From NCBI RefSeq assembly GCF_054482525.1, contig NZ_CM137006.1: DNA of 64,000 nucleotides, one strand, 5' to 3'. Below are positions 3,052 to 29,785 of the stretch, in pieces (position 1 is the first letter of the stretch; each line of letters starts with the position of its first letter). Under the pieces are notes generated by a model that had not been told where the DNA came from, made no database searches, and worked only from the letters and a program-made list of their open reading frames with translations. Made by a program: the position numbers and the translations under genes.

Positions 3052-4294
<1,243 letters not shown>

Positions 4295-24514: not shown

Positions 24515-24786
<272 letters not shown>

Positions 24787-24841
24787 GGTGATGCTGCCAA
24801 CTTACTGATTTAGTGTATGATGGTGTTTTTGAGGTGCTCCA

Positions 24842-25117
24842 GTGGCTTCTGTTTCTATCAGCTGTCCCTCCTGTTCAGCTACTGACGGAGTGGTGCGTAA
24901 CGGCAAAAGCACCGCCGGACATCAGCGCTATCTCTGCTCTCACTGCCGTAAAACATGGCAACTGCAGTTCACTTACACCGCTTCTCAACCCGGTACGCAC
25001 CAGAAAATCATTGATATGGCCATGAATGGCGTTGGATGCCGGGCAACCGCCCGCATTATGGGCGTTGGCCTCAACACGATTTTACGTCACTTAAAAAACT
25101 CAGGCCGCAGTCGGTAA
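24842..25117 (+). CDS. insA: IS1 protein InsA
   Basis: 91-aa product [30 protein letters not shown]... recognised as InsA. Confidence 0.95.
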
Positions 25118-25539
25118 CCTCGCGCATACAGCCGGGCAGTGACGTCATCGTCTGCGCGGAAATGGACGAACAGTGGGGATACGTCGGGGCTAAATCGCGC
25201 CAGCGCTGGCTGTTTTACGCGTATGACAGGCTCCGGAAGACGGTTGTTGCGCACGTATTCGGTGAACGCACTATGGCGACGCTGGGGCGTCTTATGAGCC
25301 TGCTGTCACCCTTTGACGTGGTGATATGGATGACGGATGGCTGGCCGCTGTATGAATCCCGCCTGAAGGGAAAGCTGCACGTAATCAGCAAGCGATATAC
25401 GCAGCGAATTGAGCGGCATAACCTGAATCTGAGGCAGCACCTGGCACGGCTGGGACGGAAGTCGCTGTCGTTTTCAAAATCGGTGGAGCTGCATGACAAA
25501 GTCATCGGGCATTATCTGAACATAAAACACTATCAATAA
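25036..25539 (+). CDS. insB: IS1 transposase InsB reading frame (expressed as an InsAB' fusion by -1 frameshift)
   Basis: 167-aa ORF overlapping the insA 3' end; recognised as InsB. Confidence 0.9.
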
Positions 25540-25554
25540 GTTGGAGTCATTACC

Positions 25555-25563
25555 CTCTGCATA
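25555..25563. repeat. 9-bp target-site duplication (ctctgcata), right copy
   Basis: identical to 24778..24786. Confidence 0.85.
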
Positions 25564-25675
25564 GACAAGATTGAGTAAGAGTGACTTCAGGAATAATGGT
25601 GTACATATCCCCTTGCTGGGTCGTATTAAAGGTTATCTGACTGGAAAGTGCCGCAAGGAGTAATAACGCATTCAT
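25555..25675 (-). pseudogene. csgC: csgC 5' fragment (signal peptide plus ~20 residues), reads into IS1 and terminates
   Basis: MNALLLLAALSSQITFNTTQQGDMYTIIPEVTLTQSCLCR then a stop inside the IS1 right end; the two fragments minus the 9-bp duplication make 333 nt, i.e. 110 aa plus stop. Confidence 0.85.
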
Positions 25676-25733
25676 ATTCTTCTCCCGAAAAAAAACAGGG
25701 CTTGCGCCCTGTTTCTTTAATACAGAGGATGTA

Positions 25734-26189
25734 TTAGTACTGATGAGCGGTCGCGTTGTTACCAAAGCCAACCTGAGTGACGTTAACGCTGGAGTTAGAT
25801 GCAGTCTGGTCAACAGCAGCACCGTTACCGCCACCGAACTGTTTAACAGTCATAGTAGAATCTTTACCATTCCACTGATCAAGAGTAGCGCTGTTGCCGA
25901 AACCACGCTGAGTCAGATCGATTGAGCTGTCATCAGAACCTTGGCCAACATCTGCGCCGTTACCGCCGCCGTGCTGGGTAATGGTCAGATCAGAGTTACG
26001 GGCGTCAGCTTGCAGAGCAAGAGCAGAGTTACCGCCACCGTACTGGTAAATGTTCAGCTCTGAATTTGGGCCGCTATTATTACCGCCACCACCGTGGTTA
26101 CCGCCGCCGCCGTACTGAGGAACAACACCTGCCAGAGCGCTACCAGAGAATACGATTGCTGCAATTGCTGCTACTTTTAAAAGTTTCAT
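25734..26189 (-). CDS. csgA: major curlin subunit CsgA
   Basis: 151-aa ORF with signal peptide and five imperfect S-x5-Q-x-G-x-G-N repeats. Confidence 0.95.
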   Translation of the reverse strand: MKLLKVAAIAAIVFSGSALAGVVPQYGGGGNHGGGGNNSGPNSELNIYQYGGGNSALALQADARNSDLTITQHGGGNGADVGQGSDDSSIDLTQRGFGNSATLDQWNGKDSTMTVKQFGGGNGAAVDQTASNSSVNVTQVGFGNNATAHQY

Positions 26190-26229
26190 GTAAAACCCCC
26201 ATCGGATTGATTTAAAAGTCGAATGGAAA

Positions 26230-26685
26230 TTAACGTTGTGTCACGCGAATAGCCATTTGCGACTGTCTCTGCACTACAATTGCCGTTTTTTGAGTACCAT
26301 ACTGTGTAATATTTGCTTTATTACCAGAACCTTTCTGGATAATCATCGCAGTATTACCATAAGCACCTTGCGAAATACTGGCATCGTTGGCATTGCCCGC
26401 CTGATCAATATATGCAAGGTTATAATCTCCTGTCTGGTCAATCTTTGCCCGGTTGCTACTACCTTCTTGCGCAACAACCGCCAAAAGTTTTGAGCCTCCC
26501 TGCCGTACCTGAGTACTATTATTAGTCCCAGCTTGACCAATTATGGCTGCCTGATTAAATGAAGACTTACTCAATTCATTTACCGCGAAGTTATATTCTG
26601 AATTAGCTAAATCATAACCTGCTGCGGCTGCAATCCCAGGCGCACCCAGTATTGTTAACATCATAAATAACAATTTGTTTTTCAT
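26230..26685 (-). CDS. csgB: minor curlin nucleator CsgB
   Basis: ORF 26230..26712; start at MKNKLLFMMLTILGAPGIAAA gives 151 aa. Confidence 0.9.
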   Translation of the reverse strand: MKNKLLFMMLTILGAPGIAAAAGYDLANSEYNFAVNELSKSSFNQAAIIGQAGTNNSTQVRQGGSKLLAVVAQEGSSNRAKIDQTGDYNLAYIDQAGNANDASISQGAYGNTAMIIQKGSGNKANITQYGTQKTAIVVQRQSQMAIRVTQR

Positions 26686-27439
26686 GTTGTCACCCTGGAC
26701 CTGGTCGTACATTTAAGAAATTAAATCATTTCAACTTGGTTGTTAACGCAACCTGTATTTTGTTAACGCTGCGTTACGATGGAAAGTATGTCTGCGGAAA
26801 TATTTTTAATAACTCACCCGCGCGTTGTATTTTTCTTTTTTTGTTCATACCAAAGTATTAAAACCCACGTAAATACGCTGTTATCTACGCAAAAAAATAT
26901 TTTGTTTTCTTTTAAATCTCCATTTTCCGCAATCAAAAATCACCAGACAGCCATTCTTCTTGCCCGTCGCTGATTGCTGCGATATGTCTTGCGCACAAGC
27001 CGTGACAAACCTCGTCTTTTTGCAGTAAAAAATTGTCCACGGAGGTGTGAAGAAAAAACAACAACGTTTTACATGACGAAAGGACTACACCGAAATATTT
27101 TTTATATGCATTATTAGTAAGTTAGCACCATTTGTATGATTTTTTAAAATTGTGCAATAAAAACCAAATGTACAACTTTTCTATCATTTCTAAACTTAAT
27201 AAAACCTTAAGATTAACATTTTAATATAACGAGTTACATTTAGTTACATGTTTAACACTTGATTTAAGATTTGTAATGGCTAGATTGAAATCAGATGTAA
27301 TCCATTAGTTTTATATTTTACCCATTTAGGGCTGATTTATTACTACACACAGCAGTGCAACATCTGTCAGTACTTCTGGTGCTTCTATTTTAGAGGCAGC
27401 TGTCAGGTGTGCGATCAATAAAAAAAGCGGGGTTTCATC
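26686..27439. promoter_or_regulatory. csgBA / csgDEFG divergent intergenic control region
   Basis: 754-bp AT-rich ORF-free region between divergent csgB and csgD; known to hold the curli promoters and several regulator sites; individual sites not mapped here. Confidence 0.6.
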
Positions 27440-28090
<651 letters not shown>

Positions 28091-28094
28091 AGCC

Positions 28095-28484
28095 ATGAAA
28101 CGTTATTTACGCTGGATTGTGGCGGCAGAATTTCTGTTCGCCGCAGGGAATCTTCACGCCGTTGAGGTAGAAGTCCCGGGATTGTTAACTGACCATACTG
28201 TTTCATCTATTGGCCATGATTTTTACCGAGCCTTTAGTGATAAATGGGAAAGTGACTATACGGGTAACTTAACGATTAATGAAAGGCCCAGTGCACGATG
28301 GGGAAGTTGGATCACAATAACGGTCAATCAGGACGTTATTTTCCAGACTTTTTTATTCCCGTTGAAAAGAGACTTCGAAAAAACTGTCGTCTTTGCACTG
28401 ATTCAAACTGAAGAAGCACTAAATCGTCGCCAGATAAATCAGGCGTTATTAAGTACGGGCGATTTGGCGCATGATGAATTTTAA
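28095..28484 (+). CDS. csgE: curli secretion specificity factor CsgE
   Basis: 129-aa ORF recognised as CsgE. Confidence 0.9.
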
Positions 28485-28508
28485 ATAAAAAATTGTTCGG
28501 AGGCTGCA

Positions 28509-28925
28509 ATGCGTGTCAAACATGCAGTAGTTCTACTCATGCTTATTTCGCCTTTAAGTTGGGCTGGAACCATGACTTTCCAGTTCCGTAATCCAAACTT
28601 TGGTGGTAACCCAAATAACGGTGCTTTTTTATTAAATAGCGCCCAGGCACAAAACTCGTATAAAGATCCGAGCTATAACGATGACTTTGGTATTGAAACG
28701 CCATCAGCGTTAGATAACTTTACCCAGGCCATCCAGTCACAAATTTTAGGTGGGCTACTGTCGAATATTAATACCGGTAAACCGGGCCGCATGGTGACCA
28801 ACGATTATATTGTTGATATTGCTAACCGCGATGGTCAATTGCAGTTGAACGTGACAGATCGTAAAACCGGACAAACCTCGACCATCCAGGTTTCGGGTTT
28901 ACAAAATAACTCAACCGATTTTTAA
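28509..28925 (+). CDS. csgF: curli assembly component CsgF
   Basis: 138-aa ORF recognised as CsgF. Confidence 0.9.
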
Positions 28926-28951
28926 GCCCCAGCTTCATAAGGAAAATAATC

Positions 28952-29785
28952 ATGCAGCGCTTATTTCTTTTGGTTGCCGTCATGTTACTGAGCGGATGCT
29001 TAACCGCCCCGCCTAAAGAAGCCGCCAGACCGACATTAATGCCTCGTGCTCAGAGCTACAAAGATTTGACCCATCTGCCAGCGCCGACGGGTAAGATCTT
29101 TGTTTCGGTATACAACATTCAGGACGAAACCGGGCAATTTAAACCCTACCCGGCAAGTAACTTCTCCACTGCTGTTCCGCAAAGCGCCACGGCAATGCTG
29201 GTCACGGCATTAAAAGATTCTCGCTGGTTTATACCGCTGGAGCGCCAGGGCTTACAAAACCTGCTTAACGAGCGCAAGATTATTCGTGCAGCACAAGAAA
29301 ACGGCACGGTTGCCATTAATAACCGAATCCCGCTGCAATCTTTAACGGCGGCAAATATCATGGTTGAAGGTTCAATTATTGGTTATGAAAGCAACGTTAA
29401 ATCGGGCGGGGTTGGGGCAAGATATTTTGGGATCGGTGCCGACACGCAATACCAGCTTGATCAGATTGCCGTGAACCTGCGTGTCGTCAATGTGAGTACC
29501 GGTGAGATCCTCTCCTCGGTGAACACCAGTAAGACGATACTTTCCTATGAAGTTCAGGCGGGGGTCTTCCGCTTTATTGACTACCAGCGCTTGCTGGAAG
29601 GAGAAGTGGGTTACACCTCGAACGAACCCGTTATGCTGTGCCTGATGTCGGCTATCGAAACAGGCGTCATTTTCCTGATTAATGATGGTATCGACCGCGG
29701 TCTTTGGGATTTGCAGAACAAAGCAGAACGGCAGAATGACATTCTGGTGAAATACCGCCATATGTCGGTTCCACCGGAATCCTGA
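28952..29785 (+). CDS. csgG: curli secretion channel lipoprotein CsgG
   Basis: 277-aa ORF with lipobox (LLSGC); recognised as CsgG. Confidence 0.95.
   Translation: MQRLFLLVAVMLLSGCLTAPPKEAARPTLMPRAQSYKDLTHLPAPTGKIFVSVYNIQDETGQFKPYPASNFSTAVPQSATAMLVTALKDSRWFIPLERQGLQNLLNERKIIRAAQENGTVAINNRIPLQSLTAANIMVEGSIIGYESNVKSGGVGARYFGIGADTQYQLDQIAVNLRVVNVSTGEILSSVNTSKTILSYEVQAGVFRFIDYQRLLEGEVGYTSNEPVMLCLMSAIETGVIFLINDGIDRGLWDLQNKAERQNDILVKYRHMSVPPES

Follow-up and report, generated by a model that had tools for sequence, protein, structure and literature searches.

The window, a 64,000-nt stretch of contig NZ_CM137006.1 (NCBI RefSeq assembly GCF_054482525.1), was analysed around a minus-strand region, 25734-26685, that is bounded exactly by the csgA stop codon and the csgB start codon. 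The genes that make and export the curli fibre lie in the window as follows.

25734-26189, minus strand: csgA, major curlin subunit; open reading frame of 151 aa plus stop
26230-26685, minus strand: csgB, minor curlin subunit and nucleator; open reading frame of 151 aa plus stop
27440-29785, plus strand: csgDEFG, the divergent operon encoding the regulator and the secretion machinery; open reading frames of 216, 129, 138 and 277 aa

The two curlin genes are separated by 40 bp, and csgB was taken to start at MKNKLL within a longer open reading frame that reaches 26712. The last gene of the csgBAC operon, csgC, lies downstream of csgBA and is split by an IS1 element, which is the one unusual feature in the neighbourhood; the other six of the seven genes of the curli system are intact. 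The window thus contains a curli locus in which a single accessory gene has been inactivated.

Both curlin subunits were recognised over their full length by their NCBIfam equivalog models, CsgA by NF007470 (239 bits against a curated cut-off of 160, coverage 1-151 of 151 aa) and CsgB by NF007506 (269.3 bits against a curated cut-off of 165, coverage 1-151). The Pfam family Curlin_rpt (PF07012) matched CsgA in five stretches with an E-value of 3.9e-28 (97.5 bits, cut-off 20.7) and CsgB with an E-value of 1.8e-24, and the repeat regions of the two proteins share roughly 30% identity. At the DNA level, csgA is 100% identical to csgA of Escherichia coli SCU-102, and csgBA was found at 100% identity in two complete E. 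coli genomes and at an identity of at least 95% in nearly all of the 5,382 E. coli genomes with a match. The protein allele is unchanged in SCU-102, where CsgA is WP_000771435.1 and CsgB is WP_016232937.1. Nothing contradicts the csgBA identification, and we regard it as practically certain that 25734-26685 is the canonical E. coli csgBA pair.

The CsgA chain is divided into a leader, a secretion segment and a repeat core, and each unit of the core is an exact match to the repeat motif.

CsgA aa 1-20: signal peptide, a hydrophobic leader read straight from the sequence
CsgA aa 21-42: N22 segment
CsgA aa 43-151: repeats R1-R5
25995-26063, minus strand: CsgA R1 (aa 43-65), SELNIYQYGGGNSALALQADARN, exact motif match
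25929-25994, minus strand: CsgA R2 (aa 66-87), SDLTITQHGGGNGADVGQGSDD, exact motif match
25860-25928, minus strand: CsgA R3 (aa 88-110), SSIDLTQRGFGNSATLDQWNGKD, exact motif match; last residue D110
25794-25859, minus strand: CsgA R4 (aa 111-132), STMTVKQFGGGNGAAVDQTASN, exact motif match; carries T112
25737-25793, minus strand: CsgA R5 (aa 133-151), SSVNVTQVGFGNNATAHQY, exact motif match

The first-pass annotation of this DNA had described CsgA as five imperfect repeats of the type S-x5-Q-x-G-x-G-N-x-A-x3-Q, which is the motif reported for CsgA (PMC5135000), and exactly five exact matches were found, starting at aa 43, 66, 88, 111 and 133 with a spacing of 23, 22, 23 and 22 residues. The two peptides that it quoted as examples, SELNIYQYGGGNSALALQ and SDLTITQHGGGNGADVGQ, are both present verbatim, and the repeat motifs that it gave are the published ones (PMC5135000). 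In a six-frame scan of the 64 kb, the five units of CsgA were the sole matches to the motif, and even one match was seen in just 2 of 20,000 residue shuffles of CsgA. Seven columns are invariant among the five units, namely S1, Q7, G9, G11, N12, A14 and Q18.

The autocorrelation of the CsgA repeat core under BLOSUM62 had peaks at lags of 45, 23 and 22 residues (z = 11.2, 6.3 and 5.9, respectively). The strongest self-similarity of the core (25737-26063) was therefore found at a lag of 45 residues, with 47% identity, and not at 22-23. R2 and R4 are 61% identical over 18 positions, and R3 and R5 are likewise 61% identical. Because of the lag-45 peak and the likeness of R2 to R4 and of R3 to R5, the alignments suggest that the CsgA core may have descended from a duplicated two-repeat unit.

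CsgB had been said to carry a related set of repeats, and this was borne out by five units with a strict period of 22 residues, starting at aa 45, 67, 89, 111 and 133.

26290-26553, minus strand: CsgB R1-R4 (aa 45-132), four units, each 22 residues long, of the type A-x3-Q-x-G-x2-N-x-A-x3-Q
26233-26289, minus strand: CsgB R5 (aa 133-151), KTAIVVQRQSQMAIRVTQR, degenerate unit

The autocorrelation of CsgB had peaks at lags of 22 and 11 residues (z = 9.0 and 8.9), giving a half-period of 11 residues. Across the five units, Q7 and Q18 are invariant, and G9 and N12 are conserved in all but one. CsgB has been described as four A-x3-Q-x-G-x2-N-x-A-x3-Q repeats followed by a fifth, degenerate one that bears four positive charges (PMC5135000). 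R2, R3 and R4 match this motif exactly and R1 matches it except for Thr58 at the Ala position (codon 58, 26512-26514; WP_016232937.1), so that strict matches in the R1-R5 register are limited to R2-R4 because this Thr replaces Ala in R1. A fourth strict match, AKIDQTGDYNLAYIDQ, is half-shifted and spans R2 and R3, which is explained by the 11-residue half-period of CsgB. In the fifth unit the G and N positions are missing, and the four positive charges are K133, R140, R147 and R151.

The repeat architecture of both proteins, the textbook R1-R5, is already known, and the curlin periodicity here is at the protein level only. That it is instead a tandem repeat of the DNA, left by a recent duplication or forming a slippage-prone contingency array rather than a conserved protein repeat, has next to no probability, since the DNA self-identity does rise modestly at the repeat lags (csgA, 53% at lag 135; csgB, 44-47% at lags 33, 66, 99 and 132), but the unit-to-unit DNA identity of roughly 45-53% is far under the level of a recent duplication, Tandem Repeats Finder detected no DNA tandem repeat in 25600-26800 at a minimum score of 30, and repeat number and sequence are fixed in E. 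coli, nearly all of several thousand genomes showing a full-length identity of 95% or more. Among the 5,360 E. coli genomes with a full-length csgBA match, no variation in the copy number of the repeat units was found. The repeats are maintained by selection on the fold and are not the product of a recent duplication of the DNA. The periodicity at 25734-26685 should not be flagged as unexplained, and it is of little importance of its own.

In curli, both CsgA and CsgB begin with a Sec signal peptide, which is followed by a short secretion segment at the N-terminus and then by five imperfect repeats, each about 22 residues long. Every repeat adopts a strand-turn-strand fold and supplies one rung of a β-solenoid. 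The conserved Ser, Gln, Asn and Ala residues are stacked rung on rung, by which monomers are added end to end into the cross-β curli fibre, and the charged, degenerate R5 of CsgB anchors this subunit at the cell surface, where CsgA is nucleated. To our knowledge, no structure of E. coli CsgB has been solved. One rung per repeat, the Q/N/S/A ladders and surface nucleation by CsgB are established knowledge that we would carry over by homology to the two proteins encoded here.

A sequence search of the PDB matched CsgA aa 21-151 to the solved E. coli CsgA fibril (8ENQ and 8ENR) with an E-value of 4e-77, and aa 21-42 to the N22 peptide in chain S of 6L7C with an E-value of 2.5e-6. The view that the periodicity is the known curlin cross-β repeat is in agreement with these fibril matches as well as with Curlin_rpt and the NCBIfam equivalogs. 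In the paper on 8ENQ, CsgA is described as a signal peptide, N22 and the five imperfect repeats R1-R5, which form a β-solenoid with a strand spacing of 4.8 Å, in which neighbouring molecules meet through R1 and R5 (PMC11005368). We infer that the repeats of this CsgA allele would form the rungs of such a cross-β solenoid fibre. Asp and Gly are contained in R2-R4 of this allele (GADVGQGSDD, SSIDLTQ...TLDQ and GAAVDQ), and apart from T61A, N110D and E112T the sequence would be that of K-12 CsgA. According to PMC11414021, which cites Wang 2010, Asp and Gly gatekeepers in R2-R4 dampen the amyloid tendency of those repeats.

CsgB matched a curlin-repeat fibril protein (PDB 8C50) in five stretches with an E-value of 1.4e-30. 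In an AlphaFold2 single-sequence model of CsgB (pLDDT 65, pTM 0.60), ten strands were arranged in five pairs, in register with R1-R5. A Foldseek search of this moderate-confidence model against the PDB gave no significant match, 8ENQ being ranked eighth with an E-value of 0.23, and the top of this non-significant list was occupied by β-helix and functional-amyloid folds, including FapC, ice-binding proteins and bactofilin. The model is consistent with the known fold, as agreement rather than proof.

The disruption of csgC, which the first-pass annotation had also reported, was traced to an IS1 element inside the gene with a 9-bp target-site duplication.

24787-25554, plus strand: complete IS1 of 768 bp with 23-nt terminal inverted repeats; Pfam InsA and DDE_Tnp_IS1
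24842-25117, plus strand: IS1 insA
Up to 25539, plus strand: IS1 insB' frame
25093-25099: A6C frameshift site of IS1
24778-24786 (left) and 25555-25563 (right): 9-bp target-site duplication, CTCTGCATA, a perfect direct repeat
25555-25675, minus strand: 5' fragment of csgC, codons 1-40; positions 1-36 of the Tafi-CsgC profile and 1-40 of the NCBIfam CsgC model
24566-24786, minus strand: 3' fragment of csgC, codon 38 to the stop, with the duplicated 9 bp included; positions 41-99 of the Tafi-CsgC profile
25689-25718, minus strand: G+C-rich hairpin with a run of eight U, an inverted repeat that follows the csgA stop and precedes the ribosome-binding site of csgC

All of the IS1 hallmarks that we tested were found, that is, the 768-bp length, the inverted repeats of about 23 bp, insA and insB', the A6C site and the 9-bp duplication, and the element in csgC accounted for the only IS1 end in the 64-kb window. 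Translation of the 5' fragment of csgC would continue through one extra Gly codon and halt at a stop within the terminus of IS1, for a predicted product of 41 aa. Since CsgC has a seven-stranded Ig-like fold (PMC5135000), this product would be far too short to form it. When IS1 and one copy of the duplication were removed in silico, a 110-aa CsgC identical to WP_000992814.1 of SCU-102 was restored, and the surrounding 8.9 kb were then 100.000% identical to SCU-102. The insertion could in principle be an artefact of the assembly; the perfect 9-bp duplication favours a real transposition.

Over its whole length the window shares 99.99% identity with SCU-102, which was isolated as a human commensal; besides IS1, seven substitutions and one single-base deletion separate the two. 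Because of this near-identity, the source is E. coli and the IS1 insertion in csgC is very recent. Searched against 5,426 complete genomes of E. coli, the same IS1/csgC junction gave no single-piece match; the six records that covered at least 80% of the junction query were IS1 copies at other nearby sites.

Elsewhere in the window, rutG (52720-54074), which encodes a pyrimidine-utilisation transporter, has a frameshift relative to SCU-102, in which GGGG is shortened to GGG at about 52907-52910 and the gene is split into open reading frames of 71 aa (52720-52935) and 379 aa (52935-54074). The shift may reflect a genuine pseudogene or an error in sequencing the homopolymer. A Shigella origin of the DNA, IS-disrupted curli loci being typical there, was also considered and was ruled out by the identity to SCU-102 and one IS1 end.

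Other E. coli strains carry IS1 close to the same genes. In E. coli HS it lies between ymdA and csgC (1709-2406 in the coordinates of its own locus, as for the following strains). The copy in cS76a (848-1545) cuts off the 3' end of csgC, leaving 97 aa, and that in B-1109 (848-1545) is located immediately downstream of csgC and has a rearranged flank. In 98218 (3353-4050), the element occupies the intergenic region of csgD and csgB. These four insertions are independent events around the same locus. The transposase is encoded on the strand opposite csgBAC in all four strains and in the IS1 of the window.

What the loss of csgC would mean for the fibre depends on the position of the insertion. 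IS1 cannot be polar on csgB or csgA, because csgC lies downstream of both. The four open reading frames of csgDEFG are intact and 100% identical to the annotated SCU-102 genes, and the 754-bp csg regulatory region is likewise unchanged relative to SCU-102 (100% identity). Curli should therefore still be made, the insertion being downstream of csgBA and csgDEFG being intact. A recent IS1 transposition after codon 40 has knocked out csgC, and the strain would still make curli but would have lost one of the several means by which amyloid is kept out of the periplasm. We infer that curli production would continue and that the cost of the csgC loss would be mild.

The hairpin between csgA and csgC folded as RNA with -23.4 kcal/mol (z = -4.1), and 0 of 200 shuffles were as stable. 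It is absent from the list of the consensus terminator scan, which probably takes the U-run into the stem. Judged from its position and predicted fold, it is likely a terminator or an attenuator that would keep CsgC sub-stoichiometric.

CsgC is a periplasmic inhibitor that acts sub-stoichiometrically and holds CsgA in a disordered state (PMC12205649; PMC5135000). A costlier outcome, in which the loss of CsgC would lead to toxic periplasmic amyloid of CsgA and CsgB, with a strong phenotype that is selected against or compensated, is unlikely. CsgC does block the periplasmic aggregation of CsgA, cells deleted for both csgG and csgC accumulate SDS-insoluble CsgA (bioRxiv 10.1101/2024.12.25.630354), and CsgC has been described as a shield against cytotoxic intracellular aggregates (PMC12205649). 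Deletion of csgC alone, however, causes a marginal change in the accumulation of CsgA-sfGFP, with Spy, CsgE, Prc and DegP/Q as redundant back-up and with Rcs and Cpx feedback lowering csg expression under stress (bioRxiv 10.1101/2024.12.25.630354). Furthermore, csgE, csgF and csgG are intact here, and therefore CsgA should leave the periplasm quickly.

It is still far less probable that IS1 silences the whole fibre operon, which would make the repeats of csgA and csgB relics in a strain without curli. Loss of curli by insertion is known, an example being IS1 in csgB of O78:K80 isolates (La Ragione 1999, cited in PMC6173799), and other E. coli genomes have IS1 in the csgD-csgB intergenic region. 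In the window, on the other hand, the element lies in the last gene of csgBAC, beyond the terminator-like hairpin; csgB, csgA, the regulatory region and csgDEFG all show 100% identity to their counterparts in a strain whose locus is intact, and the insertion, very recent as judged by the near-identity to SCU-102, therefore leaves no time for decay. The preferred reading is a strain that would still produce curli, at a mild cost. The repeats had been said to matter because csgC is disrupted; the disruption stands, and its relevance to the repeats is weak given a non-polar insertion, the marginal effect of a csgC deletion alone and an intact csgG. The modest value of the locus lies rather in a strain-specific, very recent csgC knock-out in an otherwise intact curli locus, that is, a natural csgC-null background.

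Relative to the K-12 sequence, CsgA presumably carries T61A, N110D and E112T, none of which is at a conserved motif position. CsgB presumably carries A58T, L60V and S98N, of which A58T removes the Ala of the motif in R1. At aa 102-110 (25860-25886) and 111-112 (25854-25859), the CsgA allele of the window has the sequence D-Q-W-N-G-K-D-S-T. A client motif for CsgC, D-Q-Φ-x0,1-G-K-N-ζ-E, has been proposed, for which the stretch in CsgA is D-Q-W-N-G-K-N-S-E (PMC6173799); the counterpart in α-synuclein is 98-DQLGKNEE-105 (PMC4605646). The 63-bp stretch encoding D110 and T112 was found exactly in 1,670 of the 5,426 complete E. coli genomes (about 31%), and csgC was intact in the genomes with this stretch that were checked. 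Because of this frequency, D110/T112 is a common natural polymorphism, the client motif is not conserved within E. coli, and the D110/T112 pair is not special to this strain.

In a later view, inhibition by CsgC is electrostatic and not sequence-specific (PMC5135000), and an allele that breaks the motif in about 31% of the genomes would fit this view. If the allele were less dependent on CsgC, or if the loss of CsgC altered envelope stress or the output of curli in a way on which selection could act, the strain would be a natural test of CsgC in vivo. That this isolate, with its recent loss of CsgC, intact csgBA and csgDEFG and a CsgA deviating from the client motif, is indeed such a ready-made test we consider quite improbable.

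Among known systems, the closest are CsgA and CsgB of E. coli, which the proteins of the window resemble in length, signal peptide, N22 and five repeats with all of the motif positions, and the E. coli curli locus, with which they share the divergent csgBAC/csgDEFG arrangement. FapC and FapB of Pseudomonas are similar in forming a secreted functional amyloid from imperfect repeats with a Q/N-x10-Q/N spacing and in having a major subunit and a nucleator (PMC5135000). They differ from curli in having another repeat motif and three repeats, and they form a separate family without sequence relationship. Curli loci disrupted by insertion sequences are also found in Shigella. The IS1-disrupted csgB of the O78:K80 isolates is comparable in that IS1 lies within the csg locus, here with a 9-bp target duplication, and the present case differs from it in that the target is the inhibitor gene csgC and not a fibre, regulator or secretion gene.
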